Of a stretch of 32,000 nt of DNA, positions 1-23,844 are shown in pieces. Position numbers and translations under genes: made by a program. The DNA is from Gemmata obscuriglobus (GTDB lineage: Bacteria; Planctomycetota; Planctomycetia; Gemmatales; Gemmataceae), in NCBI RefSeq assembly GCF_008065095.1, contig NZ_CP042911.1:3015829-3047828 (forward strand), read 5' to 3'. How positions within the stretch are numbered: the stretch's first letter is position 1; each line of letters starts with the position of its first letter. The notes beneath the pieces are model-generated. The model was not told the DNA's origin. It did no database searches and worked only from the letters and a program-made list of their open reading frames with translations.

Positions 1-66
1 CGACTTGAAAGCCTTTCAACTTGCTGTTCCTGGGCAGGTGCCTAGGTGCCTGGAGCCGGCTCAAAG

Positions 67-2679
67 ATGAACTCGCACACCGACTCGCCGAACCAATCGG
101 GTGAGAGTCACGAGGAAACCGACCAGTCGGCGCCTGACGAGGTCAGTACTCCGCCGTTTACTTTGCAACTTCGGCTCGCGCGGCAGGCACTCGCGAACAA
201 TAATCCAGAGGCCGCGCTCTGTTTCCTCTATCCGGTGTTTGGCCTCAAACCTCACTCGTTTCACCTCCGGCGTCCGTTCCTCCCGTCCCCATCCAACTTC
301 TCGTCGAAGATCACGGAGGTTGTGCCGGAAGCCAGCGCACTTTTGTTGGTGGCGGCAGCGCAGACCGGCCAGATTCGTGATGCCCTTGCGGTCGCGATGG
401 CGGCAAACGGGCTGGTGCAGACCGTCAACGGCAACCACAAGGTCTTTTCGAGTGCGAGTGACTGGCTCGAGGTTTTGGAGAAAGTAAGCGACCTTAACCT
501 GCAACGGGGAACCGCGGCTCGGCTTGCTCGCTGGGCGCGAGAAGGGGTTCGCGTTCTTCGCGAACTTAGCGGGGCTGAATTGATTGAGGACGTCGTCGGT
601 CGGGACACTTTGAACGAGTGGTTCGAACAACCGCATCTCTTGATCGATCAACCTGCCAACGCCGAGGCACTCGCCGAATACTTGGCGGGCGAGCCGGTAA
701 CAGACCGGGAGATCGCCACGCTCGACATCGACGCCTTCATGCACGCGATTGAGCATCGTGATGGCTCTATCCCCGAAGGTGCGGTCGCCATCGCAATTGG
801 ACTGGCTCACGGCCTCAAAGCCCGCTCGTCTGAGGCACAGATTCCGGCGTTCATCAAGGGCGTGTTCGGCAAGGCCGTTACCGGCTCTTTCCTCGCGGAG
901 CTCGAACGTCGGCGCGTTCAACCGGAACGCGCCGTGGAACTCGCGCTCTTCGCCCTCGAACACGACCAGGGGCTGACCGACGCGGGCCGGGCCGAGTTAA
1001 CCGGGCGAGTGGTCGAACGTCTGGCCCAGCTTCCGCCGACTGCCCGCAAGTACCGCGAGCGGTTGCTCGGCCAGGCCGTTGAGTGGGCGCTCACGAACCA
1101 GGCCAGCGGGCATAGTCGGGAGAACTGGCCTGTGGTCGTGCTGTGCTTGGACCGCTTCCCCGGACCGCCCGCGCCGCGCGAGGCGTCCCCCGTCGTTGAG
1201 CTCGAGCGGGGTTCGGCTCCTATTACCGGACCAACGGACGAGGTCGGGGCGGACGTCTTGGCGGCTGGCGAATCGGACGGGGCGCCCGGCCTGACGGTTT
1301 CGGCGGCCGGGGAAGAGGAACCGAGGGCCGTGGGCGCCTTTTCGTACGACGAGCTGAGCTCGGCCGCCCTGGAAGCTGAGCGTGCGGACGAGACGCTTCC
1401 GCGCCGCGGTGCGCTCGAGAACACGCCCCGGCTGCCAGGCGATGGCCACCGCACTCTGGGCGAAGTGGTTGACCAAAGTGACCCTCGCCTCGCCTCGCTG
1501 CTCGGCCGCTATCCCGGTGACCCGGAGCGACCCGTCGTCTTGCTCGGTTTTCAGCCCGTCGGCCAACGCCTGCTCGTCTACACCGTCGAAGCGTCGGAAG
1601 GGAACCCACTTCGCTGGCGAGCGCGAGCTCTTGATGGCGCCGTGGACACGATCCAACGCGCCGTCGAAACCTTCGACGGCTCAATCGCGCGGGCCTGGCA
1701 GGATCATAAGCGCGCCGAGGTGCCCGACCGGAGCCGCGCGCTGGCCGACTCACTGCTCCACGAACTCGGCGCGCATCTCGCCGAGGTTGATGACCTGCTC
1801 AGCGCGGCGGTGTCCGACCTGTTGGCCGCCCACGATCCCGAGCCCAACATCCTGCTCACCGCCGCCGGCGCGGCCCAAGCCCTCCCGCTTGATTTGTTGA
1901 CCGTCCGGTTGGCCGGCGGTTCGGAGCGGCCGCTCGTGCACTGCGGGAGCACCGTTCGTTGGACACCGGGGCTGGTGCTTCAGGAGCGAATGGACACCAC
2001 CGGCAGGCGGTCGGGTGAGGGGACCGGCCGCTCGCTGGGGTGGCTCGCGTACCTGCCCGAACACGACCCAAACGGTCGGTTCGGCGGCTTCTTCAGAGAG
2101 AAGGAGGTCGAGAGCGAAAAGGATCGCTGGTCGCCCGGGGCGAAGTTCCTCCAGCGAACGAAGGGCCGTGGGTGCCAAGGGACGCAGGCGACCGCAGGGA
2201 ATCTGCGGTCGTATTCGGCTGGTCAGTTCAGCGACCTTCTCGTGTTGGCCCACGGCTGCTGGGACCGAGGCGCGGTCGTGCTTTGGGATGAGTTGGTGGA
2301 TTCCCTTGGGGCGGCCCAGTTGGACACGTTGTTCCTGGTCTCGTGCACGATAGGCCGACTCGGGTGGTCAGGTGCTGACGAGCCGATCAGTCACAGCTTG
2401 TTGTCCAACATTCTCGAGCAGGGGTCGGTCTCGCACCTGCTAGCCTTCCGCCACACGATTCCCGATACACCGGCGGTAAAGTTCGCTCTCCGAGTGCGCG
2501 AAGATACGGGTCGCGATCTGGCGCTCGCGCGGAGCGAGTTGTTAAAGTCTTGGTTCCCAAATGGGAGCGCGGCAACGAATGTTTGCCACCAACACCAAGT
2601 GAACACAGGTGATGCGTTCGAACGTTTCGTTGGTGCGGTCTCGATTGCGTACTCGGCAAAACTGGAACCGGTCCGGTGA
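67..2679 (+). CDS. CHAT-domain (caspase-like) peptidase with long helical N-terminal region
   Basis: ORF 46..2679 (GTG start) has its first ATG at 67. The C-terminal ~170 aa show the CHAT His/Cys pattern: 'FSDLLVLAHGCWD' (His), 'LDTLFLVSCTIGRLG' (Cys), 'GSVSHLLAFRHTIPD'. I recognise no motif in the N-terminal ~650 aa. Confidence 0.6.
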   Translation: MNSHTDSPNQSGESHEETDQSAPDEVSTPPFTLQLRLARQALANNNPEAALCFLYPVFGLKPHSFHLRRPFLPSPSNFSSKITEVVPEASALLLVAAAQTGQIRDALAVAMAANGLVQTVNGNHKVFSSASDWLEVLEKVSDLNLQRGTAARLARWAREGVRVLRELSGAELIEDVVGRDTLNEWFEQPHLLIDQPANAEALAEYLAGEPVTDREIATLDIDAFMHAIEHRDGSIPEGAVAIAIGLAHGLKARSSEAQIPAFIKGVFGKAVTGSFLAELERRRVQPERAVELALFALEHDQGLTDAGRAELTGRVVERLAQLPPTARKYRERLLGQAVEWALTNQASGHSRENWPVVVLCLDRFPGPPAPREASPVVELERGSAPITGPTDEVGADVLAAGESDGAPGLTVSAAGEEEPRAVGAFSYDELSSAALEAERADETLPRRGALENTPRLPGDGHRTLGEVVDQSDPRLASLLGRYPGDPERPVVLLGFQPVGQRLLVYTVEASEGNPLRWRARALDGAVDTIQRAVETFDGSIARAWQDHKRAEVPDRSRALADSLLHELGAHLAEVDDLLSAAVSDLLAAHDPEPNILLTAAGAAQALPLDLLTVRLAGGSERPLVHCGSTVRWTPGLVLQERMDTTGRRSGEGTGRSLGWLAYLPEHDPNGRFGGFFREKEVESEKDRWSPGAKFLQRTKGRGCQGTQATAGNLRSYSAGQFSDLLVLAHGCWDRGAVVLWDELVDSLGAAQLDTLFLVSCTIGRLGWSGADEPISHSLLSNILEQGSVSHLLAFRHTIPDTPAVKFALRVREDTGRDLALARSELLKSWFPNGSAATNVCHQHQVNTGDAFERFVGAVSIAYSAKLEPVR

Positions 2680-3848
2680 GGCCCATTCGCTGGTGAAGGT
2701 ACCCGCCCGTCGAGGGTGTGATTCACCGGGCGCGTACTGTACAGGGCCGGTTCGACGGCCATCAACTCGCGGCACACGCCCGCCGTGATCGCGCACGCGC
2801 CTTCAGCCCCTCGCTTGAGGAAGCCCCGCACCCCGGCCCGGAGCCACCCGAGGTAGGTCTGTCGGAACCCGCGCCGCGTCAGCGTCCCGTCCCGCACCCG
2901 CTTCCACTGGTCGAGCAGGATGTCGGCGTAGGTCAACAGGTCCTCGCCGACCCCCGACCCGCCGTTCCCCCGGTCGATCATGGCCTGGAAGTCTCGTCGG
3001 AGGTGCGCCCAGCAGACTTGGCGCTCGCACACAGGGAGGTGGTCGTAGGCCGAGTATCGGTCCGTGGTCAGCACTCCGGGATGGCCCGCGATCAACTCGC
3101 CCAGCACCTTCCGGGCACGGGACAGGCGGACCAGGAACACGGTCACGCGGGCGGTCACCGCGGCCCACAGCCAGCCCCGCTTGCGCCCCTCCGGCCACCC
3201 GGTCTCGTCCACGTTCGCGGGCTTCCCAACGACGTAGGCACGGGCCTCCTCAACGACCGGCCCCAAGGCGACCGCGGCCTTCCGCTGGAGGCCGCATACG
3301 GCGGCCGGGCTGATCGGTACCCCGGACAGGTCCTGGCACAGCCGCGCGACGCCCCGCTTGCCGATCCGGTACGCCCCGCTGAGGAGCGCGCACACCGCCT
3401 GGACCCGCGGCCCGTACCCGCCTCGGGCATCACCCGGTAGGGGCGGGCGGTTGATACGCCCGCAGTTCGGGCACGCGAGCCGGTGCCGACGATATTCGGT
3501 CACCTGCGGGCAAACCGGCGGTAACTCGATGATCTGGTGGCGGAGCGGTTGCGCATCACCCCCGGAGAGCGCGTGTGCGCACCGGTCACAGGTGCTCGGC
3601 CGCAACTCGATGACGTTGTCCGCGGGCAGGTCGGAACGGGAGTGCTTAGGGTGCCCCGGCTGGCCGCCCTTGCGCCTGCTGGATGGGGCCTTCGGCGGGG
3701 CGGCCTTGACGTGCGGCGGGTCGGACGACGGGGGCTTTGAGGAGTTCGTCGAGTTCTGCCCGAGCCGGGCTTCGAGGTAACGGATGTATGCCTGCACCGC
3801 CGGGGGAAGCGCGTCGAAGACCTCAGGTGGTAGCGTTGGAGATGCCAT
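2391..3848 (-). CDS. IS66-family transposase (TnpC-like), probably 3'-truncated; the ORF tail reads through into the CHAT gene
   Basis: ORF 2391..3887, with ATG at 3848 ('MASPTLPP'). IS66 hallmarks are present: 'NSSKPPSSDPP', 'GGQPGHPKHSR', Cys pairs 'CDRC...CPNCG', 'NVDETGW', 'LTTDRYSAYD', 'CWAHLRRDF'. After about residue 385 ('ELMAVEPALY') the expected TNNxAER / RKxSxG tail is not recognisable. The last 289 nt overlap the CHAT CDS in antisense. Confidence 0.7.
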   Translation of the reverse strand: MASPTLPPEVFDALPPAVQAYIRYLEARLGQNSTNSSKPPSSDPPHVKAAPPKAPSSRRKGGQPGHPKHSRSDLPADNVIELRPSTCDRCAHALSGGDAQPLRHQIIELPPVCPQVTEYRRHRLACPNCGRINRPPLPGDARGGYGPRVQAVCALLSGAYRIGKRGVARLCQDLSGVPISPAAVCGLQRKAAVALGPVVEEARAYVVGKPANVDETGWPEGRKRGWLWAAVTARVTVFLVRLSRARKVLGELIAGHPGVLTTDRYSAYDHLPVCERQVCWAHLRRDFQAMIDRGNGGSGVGEDLLTYADILLDQWKRVRDGTLTRRGFRQTYLGWLRAGVRGFLKRGAEGACAITAGVCRELMAVEPALYSTRPVNHTLDGRVPSPANGPHRTGSSFAEYAIETAPTKRSNASPVFTWCWWQTFVAALPFGNQDFNNSLRASARSRPVSSRTRRANFTAGVSGIVWRKASRCETDPCSRMLDNKL

Positions 3849-3946
3849 GCCGCAGAAGGAATACGGAGCAAGACTCACAGCGGCCACAACCGTGAACGCC
3901 TACACCAGGAGATAAATAGCTGAGACTTTAGTACTACTCCGTTACT
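2700..3946 (-). mobile_element. IS66-family element remnant; the left boundary is approximate and no matching second end was found
   Basis: This span holds the transposase above plus ~100 bp of upstream sequence ending in GTAACGGAGTAGTA (minus strand, 3946..3933). That end loosely resembles the GTAAGCG-type termini of IS66 elements. No partner terminus was seen near 2700. Confidence 0.4.
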
Positions 3947-4210
3947 TCGCCACAACTAATTAAATTGTCGCGATTTATGGCGATCTACACCTACAGGTCC
4001 GTGCCCCCGCAATGGGTTCAAATCCCAGCGATTCTGGCTAGTCCGTTCACGAGAGCAGCAAACATTCCGCCGTGGCAGTGAGCATTCCATTTGACTCAAG
4101 TCCAGATCCTACAAGATGTTCCGTCAAGGTGCATTCCGGAGGGGTGTGCATAACACGTTGTAAAACAAGCAGTTGCGGCGAGGTAACGGAGTAGTATTAG
4201 AGGCTCTGAG
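3921..4210. repeat. ~290 bp AT-rich element bounded by ~38 bp imperfect inverted repeats (MITE-like / foldback)
   Basis: The 14-bp perfect core TACTACTCCGTTAC (3933..3946) matches its reverse complement GTAACGGAGTAGTA (4183..4196). Similarity extends about 12 bp on both sides (about 32 of 38 positions match; arms 3921..3958 and 4171..4210). The interior is visibly AT-richer than its surroundings and has no ORF. Confidence 0.6.
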
Positions 4211-4246
4211 GGGCCGGCAATGCACGCCGCCGGCACCTGGAATTGC

Positions 4247-5647
4247 CTAGCGGATTACCCTGGCCACCGCATCCAGTGCCTCTTCTGGTACGAAGAGACG
4301 ATCCGTCTCTGGCAAGGGCTGGGAAAGTGTTCTGAAGCTGTCATCGTCCCGAATAGGGGCCGCCCCTCCTGAGTCATCTACAAAATAACCCCATTCGCTC
4401 GGCGCCTTCGATAACAATGAAAACTTCGGGTGGTCCCGGACGAGATAAGATTCTGGCTCCTTGAAGCCACTATCGATAAGCGCCTTGTTGATCTTCGGAT
4501 ACGCCTCGGGTGATTTCAGAAAACTACTAATCTGTTCAGAAGATCGCGGAACAGATTTGAATAAGGTGCGGGTTCGTATCCTCTTGGCGAGATCGACCAC
4601 GATGGGATCCGCTCCATCAGCCTGAGCCACAATTTCGACAAGCACGTGCAAGGCGAAGTCATCAGCGGACAACAGGGCTTGAAGTGTCACCACTTTGCCG
4701 GCGACCATGTCCATCAAAGGCCCAACGATTCGGTCGCGAGAGAAAGCCGCGAATTGTCCGTCGCGCACGACGGTTTTTAAGCGGCGCAGAAAGAGCGCCA
4801 CCATCCCCTCCGCCGCCCTGACGGTGCGGTGGTAGTACACGGCTTCGTACATGGCACGTCGTGCCACCAAAAAATGCTCGACCACGCGTCTCGATTTGGC
4901 CCGATCGAATCCCACGACAAGTGTCTTTTCGTTTGTTGTCCCCAGTGCGCACGTCGAGATCAACCGACTGAGGTCATATCCCCCAAACGTAACGCCGCAC
5001 TGCTGGCTGTCACGGCGAAGGAAATCGCTGCGGTCGACGTCGATATCGCTATCCAGTAGTCGCGGCAGGTAGGGCAGGTGATACTCGCCAAGCAAAAATG
5101 CACCGATCCGTTCAGCCATCCCGCGCTCGTAAGATTCGAGCATTTGGTGCAGTTCGCCCTCGGGCCAAGCGAGCAGAGCCTGTCCCACGAGAACGTGCCA
5201 CTTCAGCCTGCGCCCTCCCACGGCGCCTGCTGCGGCTGGAAGCCCGAGCCCCTGTCTCCAATTACCCTCGTCGTAGTCCTCACCAATGATCTCGCGCTCC
5301 CATGCGTGCGAGAGGGGCCCGTGCCCGAGGTCGTGAAACAGCGCCGCGAGTGCGAAGTCCCTGATCGCCACCTCGTCGGGGAGCAGAAACGGTGTGATCG
5401 AGTCGCGCCCTACTTCTTGAATGTGCCTGCCAAAGAGTACCGCGAGGTAGGCAGCGCCGATTGAATGAACGAGTCGAGAGTGCTCGCCGCCGGGGAACAC
5501 TAGATGCACAAGCCCGAGCTGGCGGATGTGGCGGAGCCTCTGAATTTCGCGGGTACGAAGCACCTCCACGATGAGCGTCTCCATGCCCCTAAATTCCATG
5601 AGGCCGTGGACACTGTCTTGGATACGCCTTACACGACTCGACCGCAT
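4247..5647 (-). CDS. HD-domain dNTP triphosphohydrolase-like protein (SAMHD1 / dGTPase-like family)
   Basis: 466-aa ORF. The N-terminus 'IQDSVHGLMEF...REIQRLRHIRQLG...GGEHSRLVHSIGAAYLA', then 'LFHDLGHGPLSH', then 'DSDIDVDRSDFLRRDSQQCGV' reproduce the H..HD..D metal tetrad and the DxDRxDYLxRD block of SAMHD1-like HD enzymes. Confidence 0.8.
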   Translation of the reverse strand: MRSSRVRRIQDSVHGLMEFRGMETLIVEVLRTREIQRLRHIRQLGLVHLVFPGGEHSRLVHSIGAAYLAVLFGRHIQEVGRDSITPFLLPDEVAIRDFALAALFHDLGHGPLSHAWEREIIGEDYDEGNWRQGLGLPAAAGAVGGRRLKWHVLVGQALLAWPEGELHQMLESYERGMAERIGAFLLGEYHLPYLPRLLDSDIDVDRSDFLRRDSQQCGVTFGGYDLSRLISTCALGTTNEKTLVVGFDRAKSRRVVEHFLVARRAMYEAVYYHRTVRAAEGMVALFLRRLKTVVRDGQFAAFSRDRIVGPLMDMVAGKVVTLQALLSADDFALHVLVEIVAQADGADPIVVDLAKRIRTRTLFKSVPRSSEQISSFLKSPEAYPKINKALIDSGFKEPESYLVRDHPKFSLLSKAPSEWGYFVDDSGGAAPIRDDDSFRTLSQPLPETDRLFVPEEALDAVARVIR

Positions 5648-5650
5648 AGC

Positions 5651-6979
5651 TCACCCCAGCAATTCAATAAGCGCATCGATCTCGGATTCTCTGCCTCGGG
5701 CCGCCCTAGAGAATGTCCGTAACTGCCTTAGCCGTTCTCTGAGGCGCTGCTTACTCGCCGCCGGCATTCTGAGCACTGCGTTGGTGCGCGGCAGGTGCTG
5801 CAAGAGCTGTTCGAGTTCCGTCTCGATCGCCACGCTCCCGCTACCGATCCCGGACAAAAAGGCGCCCAACTTCTGACCACACAGATGAACGAGTTCCTTC
5901 GCGGTCGCTCGCCTTTCTGGAGCGGCTACCAGCGCCCGCGCCAAGACCGCCCGAAGAGGGTCTGGCACCGAGTCCAGCCTGACGCGTTGCTCCCACTGGG
6001 TGCGCATCCGGTCTCGGATTTTTCCCTCGAATGCTTTTCTCTCAGCGGGGGTCGATGTGCGTGGAACTCTCTCATTGTCGTCGATGAAGAGAAAACTCCC
6101 AGTCACCGCCTTGTACACCGTTGCCCCTAGCGCCCAGACATCGAACTTTCTGGGCTCTGAGGGGTAGGGGCCGTCTTCAAAAAGTTCCGGCGCGCGCGTG
6201 CGAAGACTGCCGGTGACCGACAGTTCGTGTGTGAAATCGCAGGACGTGCGGCAGATGCCGAAATCAAGCAGAATGTACGAACCGTCCTTCTGCCCGATGT
6301 TGTCCGGCTTGATGTCCCCGTGAACGAGTGCCAGTTCGCCGTGCAGGTACGCTATGGCCTGGGCGATGTCGTACAAAAGGTTCGCGGCCTCGTGGGTGCC
6401 ATTGGCACGCCAGGCGTCATTGAGGGCGAAGGGTAGCTTTTCTTCAACGAGAAACTTGTCGCCTTTGACGTTCTGCAGCGGATGTGTGGCGATGATGTTC
6501 GGGTGGCGCATCGCGAGCGGGTGCGACTGAAGTTCTCGGTCTAGAATGAGCTCCTGCTGGGTGCGGTTCCCGAGTAACCGTTTGAGTACAACTTCGCGCT
6601 GCGCCTGCTTCCACTTCGCGTGGTAGACCCTCTTTTGGCTCCCCGTTCGAGACATCGCGGAGATAATCGTGAACCCTTCGGGTGGAATGAGGTTGATGCA
6701 ATCAATGACGGCATCAGGATCGTTTTGGTGCGCGCGGATGAATTTAACAATAAAATTACAATCAATCGGAGACTGAGGACCGTTGCTGAGCTGCTCAATG
6801 AGTTTGCTCAAAAGGCTCGCTGCATTCTCATCCGTCCAGGGATGATCGAGAGCGGTAGCCATCGCCGCCCAATCTTCATCTGACAGTTTTGCGAGAGGAT
6901 GAAACGTATCGTCAATCCTCGCACTCTCGTCGAGAAGCGATTCGAGTACTGATTTGGTTTTTTCCCCCAGGCCAGCCAT
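5651..6979 (-). CDS. Ser/Thr protein kinase with uncharacterised N- and C-terminal extensions
   Basis: This is the in-frame ATG at 6979 ('MAGLGEKTKS') inside ORF 5651..7429. Kinase motifs: 'EVVLKRL' (VAIK-like Lys), 'HGDIKPDN' (catalytic loop), 'LLDFGICR' (DFG), 'RTRAPELF' (APE), 'DVWALGATVY'. The stop at 5651-5653 lies 3 nt from the ATG of the HD gene. Confidence 0.8.
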   Translation of the reverse strand: MAGLGEKTKSVLESLLDESARIDDTFHPLAKLSDEDWAAMATALDHPWTDENAASLLSKLIEQLSNGPQSPIDCNFIVKFIRAHQNDPDAVIDCINLIPPEGFTIISAMSRTGSQKRVYHAKWKQAQREVVLKRLLGNRTQQELILDRELQSHPLAMRHPNIIATHPLQNVKGDKFLVEEKLPFALNDAWRANGTHEAANLLYDIAQAIAYLHGELALVHGDIKPDNIGQKDGSYILLDFGICRTSCDFTHELSVTGSLRTRAPELFEDGPYPSEPRKFDVWALGATVYKAVTGSFLFIDDNERVPRTSTPAERKAFEGKIRDRMRTQWEQRVRLDSVPDPLRAVLARALVAAPERRATAKELVHLCGQKLGAFLSGIGSGSVAIETELEQLLQHLPRTNAVLRMPAASKQRLRERLRQLRTFSRAARGRESEIDALIELLG

Positions 6980-7035
6980 TTTATGCTGCCCTGTGGTGAA
7001 GCTGCTACGTTGGTTGCTGCCAGTCGTCACGAGAG

Positions 7036-8766
7036 AGGTCACGCCACGGTTTGCAGTAGGCCTTGCGGTCCTCGGGGCACGGGATAGGAAAAGCGCGGGG
7101 CGATTTCGCCGCAACTCTCGTGCGGGGCGAGTCATGAGCACACCGCGTTTCACGGCCGAGGAACTCGACCGCCTTCGAGCACTGGCGGCGGAGTGGGGCA
7201 AAATCGTTTCCAAGCGGGCGTTCGGGGACGACGGGCCGGGATTGGACGTGGACTTCCGGACGATGGAGCAGATCGCCACCGCGGCGGCACAAGGGCTCAC
7301 CGAAGGTGCCCTCCAGCAGATGCTCCACCAGCAGGCCCGGAAGGTGCCCGAACAGGTTCCGTGTCCGGTGTGTGGCGAGCCGTGCCCGACCCGACCACAC
7401 ACCCGCACCCTGGCGGCCCAAGGGGCCACGGTTCAACAGGCCGAACGGATCGCCCATTGTCCCGCCTGCCGGCGGGACTTTTTCCCCCCTGCGGCTGGCC
7501 CTCGGGCTGGATGAGCACGGGTACAGTTCCTCGGTCGTTCAACGCATCGTCACGGCCGCCGCCCGGTTCTCCTCGTTCCGGGATGCCGCCGAGGCGGTGC
7601 GGATGACCGGGGTCACGATCAGCGACAACCAGGTGCGCCGACTGGCTCACGAGGTCGGGCACGAGTTGATCGCGCGGCGCGATCGGAAGGCGGTCGAGCA
7701 CCGGCGCCGCCAGTTAGAGCCGCGGACCGCGGTGGTGCCCGTGGCCGTGGTGGTCGAGGTCGATGGGGGGCGCATCCGCACCCGCGCCGCGGGCGCCGGC
7801 CCGGGTGTTCACGAGGCCCAGAACAAGGAGGACAAGGTGGCGTGCCTGGCCACCCTGAGTGGCCCCACGTTCGCCACGGACCCGTGCCCCGAGCCGCCCG
7901 AGTCGTTCCGCTGCCCGCGCCGGGTGCGGCGCCTGGTGCAGCAGATGAAGGGCCCGGCGGGCGAGGTCGCGCCCCCGGAAACCGTGGACGAATCGACGCC
8001 CCCGGTGCCGGCCGGGGAACCCGAAGGGGCCGAGCGGTGGTCCCCGACGCGGTTGGTGCGGACGTGCGTGGCGAGCCTGGAGGGGAGTACCGCGTTCGGC
8101 CCGATGATGGCCGCCGAGGCCCAGGAGCGGCGCTTCTATGAGGCCCCGCGTCGGGCGTTCGTAGCCGACGGTCAGGCGTACAACTGGACCATCTGGCGCG
8201 GGTACTTTGGTGCGTTCGAGCCGATCGTGGATTTCCTGCACGCGGTGTGTTACGTGTTCTCGTCGGCCGCGGCCGTGAGCCCCGATGAGGCGTCGGGTTG
8301 GTCCCAATACGTGGCCTGGATGCGCGCGTGCTGGCAGGGTCGCGTTGGAGAAGTGCTCACCGAACTGGATCAGTGGCAGGCGCGGCTGGGTGAGCCCCCA
8401 CCGGGTGAGGCGGCGACGGCCGAGGAGCGCCGGGACCCGCGCCGGGTGGTGGCGCACGCGCGGACCTACTTGGGGAACAATCGGGATCGCATGGCGTACC
8501 CGCGATACCGGCGCAACGGGCTACCGACGACGAGTAGCTTGGTCGAGTCACTGGTGGGCGAGATCAACGCCCGGGTGAAGAGCACACAGAAGCATTGGAC
8601 CCGGCCCGACGGTGCCGAATCGATCCTGCAACTGCGGGCCGCCGTGCTGAGCCAAGACGACCGGCTCCCACGGTTCTTCGCCGAACGGCCGGGCTCCTCG
8701 TTCCGCAAACGAGATACACTCTGCCACAAATCAGAGGGTGCCACAGCACAAACCGTGGCGTGACCT
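7036..8766 (+). mobile_element. Complete insertion sequence (ISKra4-like), 1731 bp, with perfect terminal inverted repeats and a flanking direct repeat
   Basis: The left inverted repeat AGGTCACGCCACGGTTTG (7036..7053) is the exact reverse complement of 8749..8766. The direct repeat (T)CGTCACGAGAG lies immediately outside both ends (7024/5..7035 and 8766/7..8777). The single transposase gene fills the interior. Confidence 0.85.
7134..8763 (+). pseudogene. DDE transposase (ISKra4-like) split over two frames at a T5C6 run
   Basis: Frame A (7134..7514) encodes 'MSTPRFTAEE...CPVCGEPC...HCPACRRDFFP'. Frame B (within ORF 7306..8763) continues 'LRLALGLDEHGYSS...VEVDGGR...FVADGQAYNW...VESLVGEINARVK'. 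Removing one C from the 7484-7489 run gives a continuous ORF reading 'DFFPLRLALGLDE'. The family name is from memory of similar annotations. Confidence 0.7.
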
Positions 8767-9035
8767 CGTCACGAGAGCGGGCGCATCGTCAGCCATGTCT
8801 GCCCCCTGCGGGGAATTCGCGGGTTAACCCGATTCTGATGATTGTATCGATGGCTGAAAGCATCAGAAATGTGGCCACACGTACAGTATCACTGTGTGTG
8901 TGGCCCCTTCGTTGCCGTGCATCCGTGCGTCGCGCACTGTTTACTAAACACGAAATTGCTCCCAAACGAACGTTGCAACCTGCGTGGCCTCACCCAGAGG
9001 CGAGGTGACGCAGACGCGAACGCACTCGGCGAGAC

Positions 9036-9335
9036 TCACTCGACTGTCCACAGAATGACTGAGTCCTTGTCCTTCACGTATATGCGGTTCCCGATCGCGA
9101 TCGGGTACGCGTACGTCGCGCTCGCCCCCACCTTATAACTCGCGAGTTTCTTGAACTCCTTGTCACTCGGCTCGAACACGGTGAGCTGTCCGTTGGGCGG
9201 AAGCGCGAGCAGCACCGCACCGGCGTCGACGATGTTGCCTTACCCGCGTCCACCGGGGAGTGGCTCGGTCCAGGAGGTTTTGCCCGTTTCGGAACTCACG
9301 CAAAAGAGGGCGTCCGACGAGGTGAGCCCGAAGCC
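9036..9335 (-). pseudogene. C-terminal fragment of a PQQ-like beta-propeller protein with an in-frame stop
   Basis: Manual minus-strand translation gives 'GFGLTSSDALFCVSSETGKTSWTEPLPGGRG*GNIVDAGAVLLALPPNGQLTVFEPSDKEFKKLASYKVGASATYAYPIAIGNRIYVKDKDSVILWTVE*'. There is a TAA at 9240-9242. The architecture matches the C-terminus of the intact propeller at 13007..14329. There is no start codon or N-terminal part. Confidence 0.6.
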
Positions 9336-9740
9336 ATCAACCCGCGCACGATCGCAACGCTCGGCGAAATCGGGGTCCAGATCGAGCCGACGGGAAAGCA
9401 CGCGCCGCGCGGGAAGAAAGGGGCCGCGAACCCCGTCTACAGCGTGAGGTGGGGCAAGGGGCTCAAGACCCGGGAGTTCTCGAAGGTGTACTCCGATCCG
9501 CACAACCCGCAGCGCGATTGCGCCGCGATCCTCGTGTGTAGTGAGGCCGACACGGCGTGCCCGAAGGTGACCGGCGCCGCTGCCCGCATTCCGCTCCCGT
9601 ACCTCGATCCAAAGCTGTTCGACGGTGCACCGTTCGAGTCCGCAAAGTACGCCGAGCGGCGCGACGACATCGGCCGCCTGATGCTCAGCGTGTTCATGCA
9701 GCTGCGAAGGCACTTGGAGGTGGGATCCGGCGGAAAATGA
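9333..9740 (+). pseudogene. N-terminally truncated low-molecular-weight phosphatase / ArsC-like fragment
   Basis: The frame of ORF 9444..9740 extends upstream to about 9333, reading 'AINPRTIATLGEIGVQIEP...CAAILVCSEADTACPKV...LPYLDPKLF...AERRDDIGRLM'. This aligns with the region from 'VNPRAIQFMKERGYD' onward of the intact ArsC at 11345. The CX5R(S) P-loop is missing, and the upstream sequence in this frame is unrelated. Confidence 0.55.
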
Positions 9741-15386: not shown

Positions 15387-18080
15387 TCATGAAATCGTCG
15401 TTTCGGTCAACGTTTCTACTCGTACCGACGTGACATTTTTGATTGGCGTGTACAGATCTGCTTCCACATTTTCCGTCAGTAGGGTTACGACGAGACTGTA
15501 TTGCGCCTTCTGAAGCAGCCGCCCGAGATGGGCCCGTTCGCGCCACCAGCCCGTCACTGGATAAATGGCTATCGAGCCACACGCGGCGAGTTCGGCCGCT
15601 GAGCCTTCCCACCAATCACTGTGAACCGAACCGTGGGTTCGGCCCTTGTCGCCGACGACCCAGTTGCGCGTTTCCGACTGCGACTTCGGCCTCACCTTCT
15701 CGTCTTCCCACTGTGTCTTCGAAATGCGCTGTTTGAATTCCGCAACGCTCTCGAGTGGCCGAATGACGTCAAAGCGTAACCCGTGTGATGCGTACCGGTG
15801 ATTGGCTCCCCACCCGACACTGCCCGGGCTCGGCTCCACAAAATAAGACAATGTCACGCGCATGGTAACGGGCACTTCCCCGAGCTTTTCCAGCTCTTCT
15901 CGCGGCCACGGCAGCGCGTGAAGGTGCATCTCGTTTGTCGCGGGCTTCTTCTTCTCCGAATCGAACTTAAACGGCTGAAGTGCCCCTTCGTGTATCAGCG
16001 TGGCGCAATTTTTCAGACTGTACACCGCCCGGTCGAGGTCCGGAACGCCGTACCCGTAGCAGCGAAGACATCTTTGGACGTTGGCCTTGTTTTCGAGGCC
16101 GAAGCGCCCGGTCATCGCACGGGTCCATTGGGCCGAGTGAACCAACAGGGCGCGGACGGTTTCGGGGCGCAGCTTCGGGTAGTGGCTCCACAACTGGGCC
16201 GCCATCCGTGCGGCCAGTGCCGTCGCCGGGCTCGTGTCGCGCGTCGTGTCGAACAGCCGCCCGCTTGGGTGCAGCATGGTCGTCAGCAGCGACAGGTCCT
16301 CGACGCTCGAGCGCGACCCGCCGTGGGCCCCGTAATTCCCGCCCTCGCACACGATGTCCGGTTTGATCGGCCAGCCCGGGTGGTGATCCTCGGGCCAGGC
16401 AAGTGAGGTGCGGCTCGTCGGGCACAGGTCACCAGCTTCGGCTATGGGCTCGTAGCCGGCGTACGTCGGATCCTGGATCGTCACCTTGTTCGTGAACGCC
16501 CCGACGGTGATCGCGTTCCAGGACTGGGCCGGGTCCTCGATCCCCGCGCAAGTTGTGTTCCACCGGTGGTACTCATATTCAGGCGAATAGAGTTCCGCAC
16601 GCACGTTCCCGGCCGAAATGAACATGAGCTTGGGCGTCTCGTCGAGAACGCCCGCGCAGATTTCGTCAACGGCCCCGGACCACGAGGAGGGCAACCCCTG
16701 CGGCGTCGCGCTCGCCGTCACGGCCATACAGATCGCTCGGTTCCGATCGGGCCGCCTCATCATCGCCAGGGACACGCCCTGTTGGGTCACCGCGCCGTAC
16801 ACCTCCGGAGCGTTTTCGCTCGGGGGCGGCGGAAGGATCTTCACCGACTCGAGCCGGTGGCGCAGCCGAATCACCTCATTGGTGCCCAACACCTCGGTCA
16901 GGCACCCGAATAACGCGATGCCGGCCATACCGGTTCCGTGCTGCTCCTGATCGTGATCGTGCGCTCCCCAGCTCTCATCAACACTCTGGGCGTCCGATTC
17001 GGCCAGTGCTTGCTCAAGAAGCGGATGCCCGCGATGAACACCACGATCCAAGATGCAAACGCTGGGCGCCTCGTTCCCAGCGGCGACTACATTCTTGAGC
17101 ATCGCGGCGGCAAACTGGGCTTGGTCGCGAGCCGGCAACTCGAGGTAGGGGCCGGCGAGTTCCCTCGCCTTTCTGAGCTCTGCCATGAGGCTCAGTAGCT
17201 CCAAGGACCGGGAGAACTGGGCCGCACTACCGTACGCCAAGAGCACGACCCGCTCGGGAAACCTCACGTAACGCGTGGTGGTGCGGATCCCGAGGGCACT
17301 GGTCAAAGAACGAAACCGCGCGACAACGGATTCGGCTTGCGGGCGAAGCGCGTGCAACCACACCTCCCACCACCGTTCCTCAGCCTCGTCGGGGAACTCT
17401 TCCTTCTCGGCCCAAAAATCGCGGACGAGGGCCAGCCGCACCCTGGCAATGCTCGCGACGAGCGGAGTGTTCTTTCGCACCTGCTTCGAGACCGTGGCCC
17501 GTTCACCGAGCGCGGTGATGATGCGGTCGCTTTCGCTGACCGGGCAAGTGATCGATGCGGGGAGTTTTCCGTCCGACGGTTCCTTGATGCTGACTGAAAC
17601 CTTTCGCTTTTTGTCAACCAGCCCTTCTAGTGTCGCGCGCATGCTCTCGTCGGCGCTGATGGTGAGCACCGTTCGGGTCGCGTACGTCTCGACGAGCTTA
17701 AAGAAGTGCTCGAGTTTCCCATCGGCGACAAAGACTTGTGCCGTCTCGACGCCGTCGCGCGGGAGGACGCTTCGCAACTCGATCCCGTCTCTAACCTTTT
17801 CGAGCCCTTTGAGGTTCAGCTCCTCTCCTTTATCACTCTCGAACGTCAGCACCAGTCCGCCGGGCTCGTGTGTGAGCACATCGAGCCCCGACCCGCGCTC
17901 GCGGACGCGGATCTCTGCGGCCTGATCTCGAGCGGCGGCGAACCCGTTTTTCAGCTCGGGGGCGTGCGTTGTGGGGTTACGGGCCGGGGTTTTAAAAGAA
18001 CCGCCCCCGCCCGTGTTGGTTGAGGTGTAAGAAATCGGTTCGGCATTCTGAACGAGACGTAGGTGGGGCAGCTTACTCAT
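15387..18080 (-). CDS. S8-family (subtilisin-like) serine peptidase, IetS-like, with a large uncharacterised N-terminal region
   Basis: 897 aa. The subtilase triad and oxyanion motifs appear in order: 'VCILDRGV' (Asp), 'QHGTGMAGIALFG' (His), 'FISAGNV' (Asn), 'TRDTSPATALAARMAAQL' (Ser). It overlaps the upstream ATPase gene by 8 nt. Confidence 0.8.
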   Translation of the reverse strand: MSKLPHLRLVQNAEPISYTSTNTGGGGSFKTPARNPTTHAPELKNGFAAARDQAAEIRVRERGSGLDVLTHEPGGLVLTFESDKGEELNLKGLEKVRDGIELRSVLPRDGVETAQVFVADGKLEHFFKLVETYATRTVLTISADESMRATLEGLVDKKRKVSVSIKEPSDGKLPASITCPVSESDRIITALGERATVSKQVRKNTPLVASIARVRLALVRDFWAEKEEFPDEAEERWWEVWLHALRPQAESVVARFRSLTSALGIRTTTRYVRFPERVVLLAYGSAAQFSRSLELLSLMAELRKARELAGPYLELPARDQAQFAAAMLKNVVAAGNEAPSVCILDRGVHRGHPLLEQALAESDAQSVDESWGAHDHDQEQHGTGMAGIALFGCLTEVLGTNEVIRLRHRLESVKILPPPPSENAPEVYGAVTQQGVSLAMMRRPDRNRAICMAVTASATPQGLPSSWSGAVDEICAGVLDETPKLMFISAGNVRAELYSPEYEYHRWNTTCAGIEDPAQSWNAITVGAFTNKVTIQDPTYAGYEPIAEAGDLCPTSRTSLAWPEDHHPGWPIKPDIVCEGGNYGAHGGSRSSVEDLSLLTTMLHPSGRLFDTTRDTSPATALAARMAAQLWSHYPKLRPETVRALLVHSAQWTRAMTGRFGLENKANVQRCLRCYGYGVPDLDRAVYSLKNCATLIHEGALQPFKFDSEKKKPATNEMHLHALPWPREELEKLGEVPVTMRVTLSYFVEPSPGSVGWGANHRYASHGLRFDVIRPLESVAEFKQRISKTQWEDEKVRPKSQSETRNWVVGDKGRTHGSVHSDWWEGSAAELAACGSIAIYPVTGWWRERAHLGRLLQKAQYSLVVTLLTENVEADLYTPIKNVTSVRVETLTETTIS

Positions 18081-19086
18081 TCGGGCGACGCTTCCTTCCC
18101 CTCTTCTTCTTCTCGGCGCGCATCGAGCGACGCGCCGCCATTGCTTCGACCAGCAGCGGCCCGGCTACAGTGGTCACGTCAGCCAAGACCGCGGCCCGCG
18201 CGGCGTCCTCAGCGGCTCGCGCCACTTCAGCGTGGCAAAGGCCACGGGCGGCGGCAGTAATGGCCGGCCAGCGCACTTCGGACAGTGTAAACGAACTGAG
18301 TCGATTCTCAATGAGCATCCGCACCGCACCGGTGTCAGGGAGCTCGTACTCGATGACGTCGTCGAAGCGCCGAAACAGTGCGTCGTCGAGCATGCCGATG
18401 AAGTTCGTCGCCGCCACGACGATGCTGTCCGAGTCGTCGCGCTCCATGAACTGCAGAAACGAGTTGAGCACGCGACGGATCTCGCCGACGTCGTTGGACG
18501 CGTTGCGGGTGGCGCCGATCGCGTCGAACTCGTCGAACAGGTACACGCCACGGGTCTCGGCCATCGCATCGAACACGATGTGCAGTTTGGCGGCCGTCTC
18601 GCCCATGAACTTCGTTATCAGGGCGTGGAGTTGCACGAACATTAGCGGCAGCTGGCACTCTCCAGCAAGCGCCGCTGCGGTCATCGTTTTGCCGCACCCC
18701 GGGGGGCCGACCAAGAGAAGTTTTCGCCTCGGGGCCAGGCCGTGCGAGCGCAACCGCTCCCGCTGGCGCTGTTGATGGACGATGTCTTGGAGCTGCTGCT
18801 GGATGCGGCCGGGCAGCACCATGTCACTGAGCCGCGTGTTCGGGTACGAAGCGCTTACCAGGCCTGCGAGCTCTCCCGAAGGGCGCGCGATCGGGACCGC
18901 CCGGGGCGTACCCGCAGCCGCTTGCCGCCGGCTCTCTTCGACGAGCCCCCGTAACTCTTCGGCTAGGCGTGGGTTACCGTGCTTCGCGTTGTGGGCTGCG
19001 ATCTGAAGCGTAACGGCCCGGAACTGCTCATCGTTACGAGCAGAATGACTTCGAATCAGGGCTTTGAGCTGCTCAGCGGTCGCCAC
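18073..19086 (-). CDS. AAA+ ATPase, IetA-like
   Basis: 337 aa, GTG start. Walker A 'LLLVGPPGCGKT', Walker B 'VYLFDEFDAI' and sensor region 'VVAATNFIGMLDDALFRRF' are present. It is translationally coupled to the S8 peptidase. Confidence 0.8.
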   Translation of the reverse strand: MATAEQLKALIRSHSARNDEQFRAVTLQIAAHNAKHGNPRLAEELRGLVEESRRQAAAGTPRAVPIARPSGELAGLVSASYPNTRLSDMVLPGRIQQQLQDIVHQQRQRERLRSHGLAPRRKLLLVGPPGCGKTMTAAALAGECQLPLMFVQLHALITKFMGETAAKLHIVFDAMAETRGVYLFDEFDAIGATRNASNDVGEIRRVLNSFLQFMERDDSDSIVVAATNFIGMLDDALFRRFDDVIEYELPDTGAVRMLIENRLSSFTLSEVRWPAITAAARGLCHAEVARAAEDAARAAVLADVTTVAGPLLVEAMAARRSMRAEKKKRGRKRRPNE

Positions 19087-19818: not shown

Positions 19819-22800
19819 TTGAATGGTCGAGCCCACGACGTGACAACCTTACTTTACTACCCCGCAATCGAGAGTCGTCGTGGCCAGTATTTAGGCAGCC
19901 CGATCGTGAGGTTGCAGCAGCCTGCGGGGGTGGCCGAGGGTTTGCTCGAACCGCTACTGAATCGCGGCGCCGACTGGTCGACGTTTACTCCCGGCCCCGC
20001 CTCCCCTCTTCCCGACCCCGTGCTCATCGCGCCGCGGGCGACTGCAGCCAAAGGGCTGCCGGCGCAGATCCTCATCACGGCCGACGGAAAGTTGCCGCCG
20101 GCCTCCCGTGACGGGTGCCGGTGGTTTCGTCCAGCTCCACACGGGTTCTCTGCGGACCTAGCCGCGTGCGAGGCCGAGTGCGCGTCCATCCTGGACTCGT
20201 GGGTCGGCAGCTTTTCTTTCAAGGCGGAGCGGCGAACCGGCCAGACGGTCCTCGAGCGCGGGCTCCGTCCGCCGCAGATCGGTGCGCTCTACGCCGCGCT
20301 GGCTCACTGGACGGTGACCAATGATCCGGCCACCGTCGTGATGCCCACCGGCACCGGCAAAACCGAAACCATGCTCGGGTTGCTCGTGGCCGACCGGCTC
20401 CGGCGCGTGCTCGTCATCGTCCCCACGGACGCGCTGCGCGATCAGTTGAGCACGAAATTCCTGTCGCTCGGAATTTTAAAGAGTGCGGGCGTGGTCGCGT
20501 CAGGCGCCCTTTTGCCCGTTGTGGGGACGTTGCGCCGCAAGCCGACCACGGTGCAGGAGGTGGACGAGTTCTTTTCACGCTGCAACGTCGTGGTGACGAC
20601 CGCGCAAATTGCCGGGGCGTGCGTGCCCGATGTGCTCGCGCGGATGGCCGCGGTCTGCAGTCACCTCTTCGTGGACGAGGCGCACCACGTGCGGGCTCCG
20701 ACCTGGGAACGGATCCGGACGGCGTTCACCGGCAAAGGGGTTCTTCAGTTTACGGCCACGCCGTTTCGAGGCGACGGCCGACTCGTCGACGGGAAAGTCA
20801 TTTACAACTACCCGTTGCGGAAAGCACAGCAGGACGGCTACTTTCGCCCGATCCGGTTCCGGCCCGTCGAGGATTACGACGAGGACCAGAGCGACAAGTG
20901 CATCGCCGCCGAAGCCCTCGCACAGCTAGAAGACGACTTGCGGGCGGGGCGCGACCATTTGCTCATGGCGCGCTGCTCGAACATCACGCGCGCGGAAAAG
21001 GTCTTCGAGATTTACAAGAAGCTGGCAGCGGGCCACCAACCCGTCCTCGCCCACAGTGAGCTGTCGGCGAACCAGAAGCGATCGGCCGTTGAGGCCTTGC
21101 GCAACCGGACGACGCGGGTCGTCGTGTGCGTCGACATGTTCGGGGAGGGCTTCGACCTGCCGCAGCTGAAGGTTGCCGCCCTCCACGACGTGCACAAGAG
21201 CCTGGCCGTGACGCTCCAGTTCACCGGGCGCTTCACGCGGACCGAGGACGGGGTCGGCGAAGCGACGATAGTCGCCAACATCGGTAACGTCGATGTGGGC
21301 GGCGCCCTCCAGGACCTTTATGCCGAGGACCCGGACTGGAACCTCCTGTTGCGCGAGCTGTCGGAGGCGGCCACCGGCGGGCAGGTGCTGCGGTCGGAGT
21401 TCCTCCAAGGGTTTACGAACCTGCCCGACCGCATCCCGCTCCAAAACATCTTCCCCAAGATGAGCACGGTGGCGTTCGAAACCTCGTGCCCGCGGTGGAT
21501 GCCCGAAGCGATCGAGCGGGTCGTCAGGAACCTGTACGACGAGCCCGCGGTGCACCCGCGCGAGAACGTCGCAATCTTCGTCACGCGCGAGCAGTTCCCG
21601 GTGGTGTGGGGCGACGTGCGCGGCATCAGCGACGTCGTCTACGAGCTGTACATCGTGCACTGGGACGACGCGCAGAACCTCCTCTACATCCACAGCTCGG
21701 ACAACGGGACGGCCCACGAGGACATCGCCAAAGCCGTCTGCGGCCCTGATGCCGCTGCGGTGACTGGCGAGCGCGTGTTTCGAGCCCTTCACGGGGTCAA
21801 CCGTCTGATCCTGACCAACCTCGGGCTCGGTCACTCACTGAGCCGCGCGGTCCGCTTCACGATGCACGTGGGGCCCGACATCCGCGAGGGCCTCACCGAG
21901 ATGCACGCGAAGAACAAGTACAAGACGAACCTCTTCGGTCGCGGCTACGAGGGCGGAGAGAAGGTGAGCATCGGCTGCTCGAAGAAGGGGCGCATTTGGT
22001 CGTTCCACTCGGCCGAGGACGTGCACGACTGGCTCCGCTGGTGCCGGGCGATCGGGCCGAAACTCAAAGACAACACCATCGACGTCGCTGGGCTCCTGAA
22101 GGGGGCGATGGTGACCAAGCCAGTCTCGGCTCGGCCGACCAAAGTCCCTATCACCATCGAGTGGTCCGAGGACCTGCTGTGCCGCGACGAGGACGCCGTC
22201 CAGTTCGAGGTGGCCAACGTGCGCGCCCCCTTTTACGAGGTGGAACTGGAGCTCGTGGGCCATTCCGACACGGACCCGATCCGGTTTCGCATCTCTTCGG
22301 ACGTCTGGCCCCTGCCCGTTGAGTTCGAGGTCCGCCTCTCCGCCGACCGCGTCGAGTACGTCCCCGCGACCGGCACCGACCCGAACGTGATCGTCGGCCG
22401 ACGCACCCTGGCGCTTACGAAGTACTTGAAGCAAGAGCCACCGGTGATCCGCTTCCACGACGGCGCGTTTCTCATCGGCAACGACCTGTTCGAGGCGAAC
22501 GTCACGTCTCGCGTCCCGTTCGACCCGTCTCGCATCGCGACGTGGGCCTGGACCGGGGTAAACCTTAAGGTCGAATCGCAGCGACAAACCAAGCGTACCG
22601 ATTCGATCCAGCGCCATGTGATCGAGCACCTACTCTCGACAACAGCCCCGAACAAATTTGAGGTCATCTTCGATGACGACGCGTCCGGAGAAGCGGCTGA
22701 CATCGTGGCCCTGAGGACTGCGTCGGGCCGTCTGCTCGTGCAGCTCTACCACTGCAAGTACTCCAAAGACCTGAACCCAAGTAACCGGCTCGAGGACCTG

Positions 22801-23118: not shown

Positions 23119-23226
23119 ATCACTTTTTCGGCAAGCTCGTTAGCGGTCGGCCTCCTTGCCCGAAGCAAAAACCACTTGCCCATGTGATCAGCAAAGAGGC
23201 ATCAGTTCCCTCAGCGACGCTCAAGC

Positions 23227-23844
23227 TCAAGCGCCTCTGCCGAGCTTCTTTCGAAGCGCTTGCAGCAGAGCGTTTTTGATCTCTAGCGGGTACGCACGAG
23301 CCGTCGGAGTTCCCCACCTTCCCCGCTTCGGAAGCGAATGAGGGTCGAGCTCACCTCTCACCTCGTGCGCGAGCAGCAGCAGCGCATGAATCAATTCGTT
23401 GGCCTTCGTGTCGCGCTGCCCGCTCCCGCTCCGGATCAGATCGAGCAACTCCTCGGACATGCGGAGCGCCTCGGGCGACATGTTGATCTCGCGCCGGGGG
23501 CCGGTGTGCCGCGGGGGCCGAGACTCGACAAGGGGTGGCTGCTCTGCCGCCGCCTGAGAAACGACCGGTGGAGGTGGAAGCAGTTCCCCCACTTTGTGCG
23601 CGTCGGCATTCGCCGAAATCGTTGAAGGGGTGAATGCGGGTACCGAACCGATTGGCGGGGGCTCGCTGAAAACCTTTGGCTTCAGGATCACAGGTGCGGC
23701 ACGACTCGGGGCGGCCGGCTCCCCTACCCGCTTCGGCGCCACCGGACTCGGCCCCACTTCCGCCAAGTAGTCGCCGAGGTCGGTTATCGGGGCCACATCC
23801 AAGGTGAACGTGTCAGAGAGGCCGGGCCGGTACTTGTTAGCCAT
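23227..23844 (-). CDS. Partition-operon partner protein (possible centromere-binding adaptor), Pro-rich, function inferred from position only
   Basis: ATG at 23844 ('MANKYRPGL') overlaps the parA stop by 8 nt. The middle is Pro/Ala-rich. The C-terminal 'REINMSPEALRMSEELLDLIRSG...ANELIHALLLLA' could form a ribbon-helix-helix, but I see no ParB box. Confidence 0.5.
   Translation of the reverse strand: MANKYRPGLSDTFTLDVAPITDLGDYLAEVGPSPVAPKRVGEPAAPSRAAPVILKPKVFSEPPPIGSVPAFTPSTISANADAHKVGELLPPPPVVSQAAAEQPPLVESRPPRHTGPRREINMSPEALRMSEELLDLIRSGSGQRDTKANELIHALLLLAHEVRGELDPHSLPKRGRWGTPTARAYPLEIKNALLQALRKKLGRGA

Follow-up and report, generated by a model that had tools for sequence, protein, structure and literature searches.

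The stretch of DNA analysed here, 32,000 nucleotides of Gemmata obscuriglobus (contig NZ_CP042911.1, positions 3,015,829 to 3,047,828 of the forward strand) and hereafter called the window, carries two closely spaced genes on its minus strand, the first for a eukaryote-like Ser/Thr kinase of the Hanks type and the second, directly behind it, for an HD-domain phosphohydrolase that resembles human SAMHD1 (Table 1). These two genes, a candidate anti-phage pair, are the subject of this analysis. A first-pass annotation, made from the sequence alone, had described them as a 443-residue kinase followed after 3 nucleotides by a 466-residue HD protein. A scan for open reading frames (ORFs) together with the translations bears out the HD ORF, its strand and the spacing, and the motifs that had been listed are all found, i.e., LVHGDIKPDN, LLDFG and RAPE in the kinase and EHSRLVHS, FHDLGHGPLSH and DSDIDVDRSDFLRRD in the HD protein. 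The length given for the kinase, on the other hand, proved to be an artefact of truncation. The ORF that begins at ATG 6979 and ends with the stop codon at 5651-5653 comprises 442 amino acids plus the stop, and is followed by gct and the HD start codon at 5647. Free of stop codons, the kinase reading frame extends from 7429 as far as the TGA at 5653-5651, and the conserved N-terminal motif of the kinase homologues starts, in the window, upstream of ATG 6979.

The kinase gene is split by an insertion sequence (IS) of the ISKra4 family. The element ends in perfect terminal inverted repeats of 19 nucleotides (7035-7053 and 8749-8767), and its target, GTCACGAGA, is duplicated perfectly on either side as a direct repeat of 9 bp (7026-7034 and 8768-8776); the inverted repeat and the target duplication together set the boundary of the 3' portion of the kinase gene at 7034. 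This portion (5651-7034) encodes a Ser/Thr kinase core of the Hanks type and non-RD kind, preceded by a helical N-domain and followed by a helical C-tail. Removal in silico of the element and of one copy of the duplication yields a kinase ORF of 467 amino acids which starts with MADDAPALV at 8796, and the restored protein aligns without gaps to its closest homologue (P0122, 467 amino acids, start MADEESATV), with 72% identity over 466 of 467 residues. ATG 6979 was rejected as the native start, since the conserved N-terminal motif begins further upstream and the restored gene starts at 8796, and the NCBI start at ATG 7135 as well as GTG 7042 were rejected because both fall within the IS.

In the public annotations the starts of both genes are wrong. 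The NCBI kinase (P0121) has 494 amino acids (5651-7135) and takes its ATG from within the IS, and the NCBI HD protein (P0001) has 445 and lacks 21 N-terminal residues, whose conservation shows that it has been called too short. As the ISKra4 element sits in the kinase gene, this Gemmata copy has lost its native promoter and start codon, which are now 1.7 kb away, and the putative promoter region (8797-9000) is cut off by the IS from most of the kinase gene. The perfect repeats suggest that the insertion is recent. The Gemmata module has probably been silenced or rewired by the element and may be inactive, and the disrupted window copy is therefore ill suited to experiments as long as the IS is in place. 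The transposase ORFs of the element match the NCBIfam model transpos_ISKra4 (E-value 6.9e-40) with 137 bits, under the cut-off of 205 bits, and the transposase frame is split across two overlapping frames (7137-7514 and 7306-8763), which may reflect a programmed frameshift or a pseudogene.

Table 1. The kinase-HD gene pair and neighbouring features of the window.
Feature	Position	Strand	Description
HD gene	4247-5647	-	466 amino acids, ATG at 5647; SAMHD1/EF1143-type (COG1078-like) HD phosphohydrolase, predicted dNTP triphosphohydrolase effector
Spacer, kinase stop to HD start	5648-5650	-	3 nucleotides (gct)
Kinase gene, 3' portion	5651-7034	-	From the last base of codon 7 to codon 467 and the stop codon
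ISKra4-family IS	7035-8767	+	1,733 bp, interrupts the kinase gene at codon 10
Kinase gene, displaced 5' end	8768-8796	-	Native ATG 8796-8794, first 9 codons and 2 nucleotides (MADDAPALV)
Native upstream (putative promoter) region of the operon	8797-9000	-	Position inferred from the restored gene
Low-GC (52%) spacer	3888-4246		Between the HD stop and the IS66 transposase gene
IS66-family transposase gene	2391-3887	-	On the HD side of the cassette; Pfam DDE_Tnp_IS66, zf-IS66, DUF6444
IetAS (Gao_Iet) system	15387-19086	-	Complete defence pair, about 6.6 kb beyond the native kinase start at 8796
IetS subtilase	15387-18080	-	897 amino acids; PADLOC 8.1e-33, Pfam Peptidase_S8
IetA AAA ATPase	18073-19086	-	337 amino acids, overlaps IetS; PADLOC 5.1e-69, Pfam AAA

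By every sequence-level test the HD protein belongs to the SAMHD1/EF1143 family and is not of the Dgt type. Its Pfam matches are HD (24.4 bits, cut-off 22) and HD_assoc_2 (32.4 bits, cut-off 23.1), and phmmer against the PDB finds EF1143 (2o6i, 2e-30), 2q14 (2e-25), fungal SAMHD1 (9mr6, 1e-23; PMC12042053) and other bacterial structures of the COG1078 type; human SAMHD1 is matched at 1.1e-18 over residues 7-289. The complete H..HD..D tetrad that had been proposed is confirmed by the phmmer alignment, in which H61, H105/D106 and D205 correspond to H167, H206/D207 and D311 of human SAMHD1, and R58, H109, H114 and Q43/L44 to R164, H210, H215 and Q149/L150. In an alignment of 20 HD sequences R58, H61, H105/D106, H114 and D205 are invariant and H109 is kept in at least 90%; little or no variation is seen across the family at the equivalents of Q149 and L150. 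At the putative allosteric site the equivalents of SAMHD1 Q142 and R145 (Q36 and R39) are conserved, and the position of D137 is taken by a nearly invariant arginine, R31. The first-pass annotation had allowed for the HD protein grouping with the housekeeping dGTPases, which it does not do: the models of Dgt-type enzymes barely register. Assignment to the Dgt-type antiphage dGTPases or to the housekeeping ones was rejected, since the PADLOC dGTPase profile aligns to no more than residues 57-118 (E-value 0.002, 15.5 bits) and the scores against NF041026 (13.7 bits vs 400) and TIGR01353 (19.3 vs 152) stay far below the cut-offs; the Dgt-type enzymes in the PDB reach merely E-values of 0.3-0.9 in phmmer.

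The HD proteins that are linked to a kinase form a clade of their own, and 31 of these were compared with 66 HD proteins without a kinase. The catalytic residue set is common to both clades, and R58, H61, H105/D106, H114 and D205, but not H109, are among the residues that are at least 95% conserved in both. Confined to the kinase-linked clade are an insertion that spans roughly residues 120-148 and includes W130 and L134, further W150, an invariant S231, as well as G246 and A265; the position of S231 is most often histidine in the kinase-less clade. These features can be named as candidates for docking or for accepting a phosphate, by inference only.

The kinase, for which residues are numbered from ATG 6979, matches Pfam Pkinase over residues 113-365 with 91.4 bits (cut-off 31.7), and Pfam leaves about 112 N-terminal and 77 C-terminal amino acids without a family. 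The two terminal extensions, to which the earlier annotation had drawn attention, are real, conserved across the homologues and specific to this family. Invariant among 40-60 kinase homologues are K133 (the beta-3 lysine), E149 (the alpha-C glutamate), the motif H220-G-D222-x-K224-P-D-N227, D239-F-G241, A-P264-E265 and an activation segment TGSLRTRAPE. Judged from these residues the protein is a catalytically complete Hanks-type Ser/Thr kinase of the non-RD (HGD) kind. The catalytic centres of kinase and HD protein alike are under purifying selection. An AlphaFold2 model built with 60 homologues (predicted local distance difference test (pLDDT) 88.7, predicted template-modelling score (pTM) 0.79) shows a core with the canonical kinase fold between an all-helical N-domain and a helical C-tail. 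In Foldseek only the core was matched, to structures of Aurora, PAK and CaMK kinases with TM-scores of 0.68-0.79, and the N-domain modelled alone (pLDDT 86) found nothing better in the PDB than an E-value of 2.6. When 1.84 billion representative proteins were searched by phmmer the N-domain gave 19 matches, of which 18 were N-terminal in sequences of the size of the family or shorter and the last was a repetitive protein of 1,964 amino acids.

The pairing of the two genes is conserved at every locus sampled. The first-pass annotation had proposed to ask whether they are neighbours in other genomes as well, and in all 24 non-redundant loci, the window included, the kinase gene directly precedes the HD gene on the same strand. 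Three HD homologues that were looked up on their contigs all have a kinase of 443-467 amino acids directly upstream, and six further look-ups (five via the HD protein and one via the kinase) likewise gave the pair each time. In a scan of 80 loci with one genome per species, a full-length kinase was found directly upstream on the same strand at all 12 loci where the HD protein is at least 42% identical, and such a kinase was upstream at none of the 68 loci of the nearest other HD clade (31-38% identity, mostly Myxococcota). Starting from the other side, three kinases chosen because their contigs were absent from the list of HD matches all have an HD gene directly downstream. In 22 homologous locus records the distance from kinase stop to HD start ranges from -20 to +38 nucleotides and mostly falls between -8 and +5, and tight coupling is therefore conserved. 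No third gene or small ORF is conserved up- or downstream of the pair in a tblastx comparison of 23 loci. The pairwise identities of kinase and HD protein across 19 pairs are correlated with r = 0.91, a value reached in none of 2000 Mantel permutations, and this fits inheritance of the pair as a unit.

The hosts belong to the Planctomycetota, Acidobacteriota, Actinomycetota, Armatimonadota, Gemmatimonadota and Patescibacteria, and to the archaeal Methanobacteriaceae; the records name Bryobacteraceae, Terracidiphilus, Holophagales, Thermoanaerobaculia, Candidatus Angelobacter, Solirubrobacterales, Fimbriimonadaceae, Longimicrobium, Tepidisphaeraceae, Phycisphaerae, Scalindua, Saccharimonadales and a Methanobacteriaceae archaeon. 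In one metagenome-assembled genome of the Acidobacteriaceae (L016, 9974-11400) the HD gene contains several in-frame stops and looks decayed, and the upstream kinase ORF (469 amino acids) is intact; in the syntenic locus L014 both genes are intact, and an assembly error in L016 is possible. Two long sequences were considered as natural fusions of kinase and HD protein and rejected, as P0099 (584 amino acids) looks like a mis-called ORF and P0125 (666 amino acids) is a kinase homologue on a JGI contig of 7,474 nucleotides with an N-terminal extension that has no Pfam match. This extension, of about 200 amino acids, by eye resembles a degenerate dual-specificity phosphatase motif, and it may be a merged upstream gene.

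Wherever it is found the pair is a horizontally mobile and compositionally foreign module. Its guanine-cytosine (GC) content was below that of the flanks in all 22 locus records measured, by 0.018 to 0.182, in accordance with the horizontal acquisition that had been suspected for the Gemmata copy. The dip in GC content is real in the window also, where it is smaller than the 47-55% against 65-75% first given: the pair has 57-58%, the whole window 63% and the adjacent IS genes 68-70%, and the GC content at third codon positions is 0.66 in the pair and 0.75-0.88 in other genes of the window. Flanking genes are common to two loci in only about 1% of comparisons, all of them between closely related genomes. 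At one locus (L017, 5654-12780) the pair lies between ftsH-folP and folK, apparently inserted into a housekeeping cluster of folate genes.

An ordinary housekeeping origin, in which a vertically inherited dNTPase (deoxynucleoside triphosphatase) has come to lie by chance beside one of the many Ser/Thr kinases of planctomycetes, is very improbable. Hanks kinases are indeed numerous in Planctomycetes and Myxococcota, and generic kinase matches occur at random positions in a few of the control loci; however, one and the same full-length kinase family, with its unique N- and C-terminal domains, stands at 24 of 24 loci from many phyla and at 0 of 68 loci of the sister clade, the flanks are not conserved, the GC content is foreign and the window copy lies in an island with ParA, RepA and IS elements. 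Because of the linkage, the foreign composition and the unshared flanks this explanation is effectively excluded.

The island of the window contains IS66, ISKra4, ParA, a RepA-type initiator and a ResIII helicase. Of the two IS elements thought to bracket the cassette, the IS66 gene does lie on the HD side, whereas the other one, ISKra4, lies within the kinase gene and not beside it. The IS66 transposase scores 211.9 bits against the NCBIfam model transpos_IS66 (cut-off 180) over model positions 1-312 of 387. In the spacer between this gene and the HD gene there is an imperfect inverted repeat of 36 nucleotides (3922-3957 and 4171-4206; 86% complementary, arms 213 nucleotides apart), which could be a miniature inverted-repeat transposable element, an IS end or a structured element. 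The region 19819-27540 resembles the backbone of a plasmid or an integrative element, with a ResIII/DEAD helicase of 1,099 amino acids that has weak PADLOC matches to PbeA and to type IV restriction enzymes, ParA (23837-24793) and the RepA-type replication initiator (26089-27540). A comparable set, ArdC, a helicase of 1,615 amino acids, RepL and ParA, stands beside the pair in Phycisphaerae RAS1 (L091). Long ORFs of 877, 286 and 415 amino acids in the window (46-2679 and 28902-30981, plus strand) have no Pfam or PADLOC match, and the 877-residue ORF, the only one of the three scanned there, has no NCBIfam match; some of the long ORFs may be spurious given the high GC content.

Defence or mobile-element genes occur within 10 kb of the pair in about half of the 13 loci annotated with Pfam. 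A patatin-SMODS CBASS and an integrase adjoin it at L087, a SIR2_2 gene lies directly upstream at L088, a HinfI restriction-modification system with Vsr is found near it at L002, and genes for HNH, Dcm and HATPase_c_3 proteins at L089. HigB and NERD genes are found near the pair at L010 and L012, respectively. At L093 an IetAS-like pair of S8 and AAA genes (6186-9723) stands directly beside the kinase-HD pair, together with MT-A70 genes and an integrase. IetAS or IetAS-like pairs are thus co-located with it both there and in the window.

The reading that we favour is that the pair is a module of two genes directed against phages, with a dNTP-depleting effector under the control of the kinase, and its probability may be put at roughly 55%. 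The two genes are obligately linked, tightly spaced and co-inherited, and the module often lands in defence or mobile islands; the case for a defence role is only circumstantial. Most likely, the module would act against phages or other invading DNA. It is proposed that the HD enzyme, of the SAMHD1/EF1143 type, hydrolyses dNTPs and so starves replicating foreign DNA, that the family-specific helical N-domain and C-tail of the kinase sense infection or bind the HD enzyme, and that the kinase switches the HD enzyme by phosphorylation, either activating it on infection or restraining it at rest. Restraint at rest would be comparable to the way in which CloB holds CloA in the Clover system. The tuning of SAMHD1 by a cyclin-dependent kinase (CDK) may be regarded as a further parallel to such coupling of a kinase with an HD enzyme.

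Several observations weigh against this reading. About 5 of the 13 loci annotated with Pfam have housekeeping neighbours only. PADLOC families numbered 18, several of them generic, among 95 neighbours from ten genome loci, a slight excess over the 6 among 95 neighbours of kinase-less HD genes used as a matched control, and the association with defence islands is suggestive, not demonstrated. The mirror-tree correlation of kinase and HD protein would also be obtained if the two had simply descended together vertically. The viral contigs of IMG/VR gave no relatives and the plasmids of PLSDB no close ones, where the only matches were distant HD proteins with 27-31% identity. With an arginine at the position where D137 of SAMHD1 reads guanine, any allosteric control would probably differ from that of SAMHD1. 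No phospho-acceptor site emerged in the HD protein, for which S231, invariant in the kinase-linked clade alone, is a mere candidate.

Some of these points would also suit a mobile accessory module with a function other than antiviral, for example phosphorylation-gated control of dNTP pools in dormancy, stress or replication, or a selfish cassette of the addiction type. At several loci the surroundings are housekeeping or metabolic and no defence gene occurs within 10 kb, the PADLOC enrichment is weak, and enzymes of the EF1143 type are known from established literature as housekeeping dNTPases. This explanation is nevertheless unlikely, since the distribution over phyla is patchy and the GC content consistently foreign, and the pair recurs by CBASS, restriction-modification, SIR2 and IetAS genes and by integrases, which is typical of defence cargo and less so of core physiology.

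A different division of labour within the pair can also be imagined, with the kinase as the principal effector: in the manner of Stk2 or PD-T4-6 it would cause abortive infection by phosphorylating host or phage proteins en masse. The HD protein would be accessory to it, either as a second, independent effector or as an antitoxin-like component by which the kinase is reset or buffered. In favour of this proposal, kinases of the non-RD kind are constitutively competent, and the tight coupling and obligate pairing resemble toxin-antitoxin architecture. The kinase core moreover matches the PADLOC profiles of PD-T4-6 and Mad6 at 1e-23 to 1e-26, but these matches cover the generic kinase domain only and the score against antiphage_MADS6 is 35 bits vs 460. 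In the HD protein a full triphosphohydrolase site of the SAMHD1 type is under strong selection, which would be unexpected in a mere antidote, and at L016 the HD gene has decayed with the kinase ORF still open, which argues against a kinase that is lethal without the HD protein; this last point is an anecdote from a single metagenome-assembled genome. Overall, a kinase effector appears quite unlikely.

Returning to a kinase-regulated, dNTP-depleting module, it is tempting to speculate further that the HD protein is a true prokaryotic SAMHD1-family dNTPase whose antiviral action is gated by a dedicated eukaryote-like Ser/Thr kinase with a previously unseen helical sensor domain, and that the pair would then be a new defence system, by which bacteria and archaea already possess the SAMHD1-CDK logic, dNTP starvation under the control of phosphorylation, in a self-contained and mobile form. 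We offer this fuller version tentatively and consider it somewhat doubtful. If true, it would provide a defence system whose nucleotide-depleting effector is controlled directly through phosphorylation by a kinase of the Hanks type, in the form of a compact sensor-effector pair, and it would be the first time that a directly alignable homologue of SAMHD1, rather than a distant Dgt-type dGTPase, is tied to prokaryotic immunity. The question whether SAMHD1 and its control by phosphorylation have a prokaryotic immune ancestry would then become sharper. The family is found mainly in lineages of soil and sediment (Acidobacteriota, Planctomycetota, Actinomycetota, the candidate phyla radiation and an archaeon of a methanogen family), beyond the reach of screens and catalogues centred on E. 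coli. The signal from the genomes is very clean and the parallel with SAMHD1 and CDK attractive, although a new combination of domains in a defence system is in itself no longer a surprise.

SAMHD1 is an antiviral enzyme that depletes dNTPs, and its restriction activity is modulated by CDK phosphorylation. The HD protein of the pair is directly homologous to human SAMHD1 and EF1143 (E-values 1e-18 to 2e-30); it shares with them the H..HD..D metal site as well as the catalytic arginine and histidine residues, and the Q/L pair that reads the deoxyribose is kept. It differs from SAMHD1 in several respects. The SAM domain is missing, the C-terminal region is another, and approximately residues 120-148 form an insertion specific to the clade; moreover an arginine stands at the D137 position, so that the allosteric specificity is probably different. 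The kinase partners differ as well, as that of SAMHD1 is a cell-cycle kinase and the one described here a dedicated operon partner.

Among prokaryotic systems, Clover combines a Dgt-type dNTPase, CloA, with CloB, a nucleotidyltransferase which makes a nucleotide signal and restrains the toxicity of CloA (PMC12265719); it illustrates that a dNTPase used in defence may need a partner. Clover and the antiphage dGTPase of Tal et al. would share with the pair, as proposed, the logic of nucleotide depletion. Both, however, use Dgt-type enzymes, which the HD protein does not resemble, and membership in Clover was rejected on this ground and because the partner is a protein kinase, not a nucleotidyltransferase. 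As Tal et al. noted, their defensive dGTPases are not directly alignable to SAMHD1, and for enzymes of the EF1143 type defence was only speculated upon by these authors.

The defensive Hanks kinases, i.e., Stk2, PD-T4-6, Mad6 of MADS and PglW of BREX, have the eukaryote-like Ser/Thr kinase domain in common with the kinase of the pair. Their systems are without an HD partner, and the N-domain and C-tail of the pair's kinase are unique to its family. Its best PADLOC matches, Mad6 (4.9e-26) and PD-T4-6 (5.8e-23), are limited to the core (residues 101-368), and all curated NCBIfam cut-offs are missed widely (NF047741 antiphage_MADS6, 35.5 bits vs a cut-off of 460; BREX PglW, 23.5 vs 990); membership in the PD-T4-6, Mad6, Stk2 and PglW groups was accordingly rejected. 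In the window no partner genes of MADS or BREX adjoin the pair in the Pfam and PADLOC annotation.

Detocs is a phosphorelay in which a histidine kinase acts on a response regulator fused to a purine nucleoside phosphorylase (PNP) domain, and by which a nucleotide-degrading effector is activated. CapK/CapS is a pair of kinase and substrate in immune regulation by which immune operons are controlled, with a kinase of the anti-sigma-factor type and a STAS-domain repressor (PMC13373217); identity with it was rejected because of the other kinase fold and the STAS-domain repressor. Detocs and CapK/CapS may resemble the proposed function of the pair in that phosphorylation couples the sensing of infection to a nucleotide-depleting or immune output, but the kinase folds and targets are unrelated and neither system has homology to either gene. 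No model in PADLOC v2.0 (2023) or NCBIfam release 20 (June 2026) matches the pair and no description of it was found in the searchable full-text literature (SAMHD1 with kinase and anti-phage, COG1078, PF19276 and similar terms), which agrees with the earlier impression that it is not a described system. By comparison with these systems, what appears to be new in the pair is immunity by nucleotide depletion that would combine a new lineage of effector with a new type of regulator.

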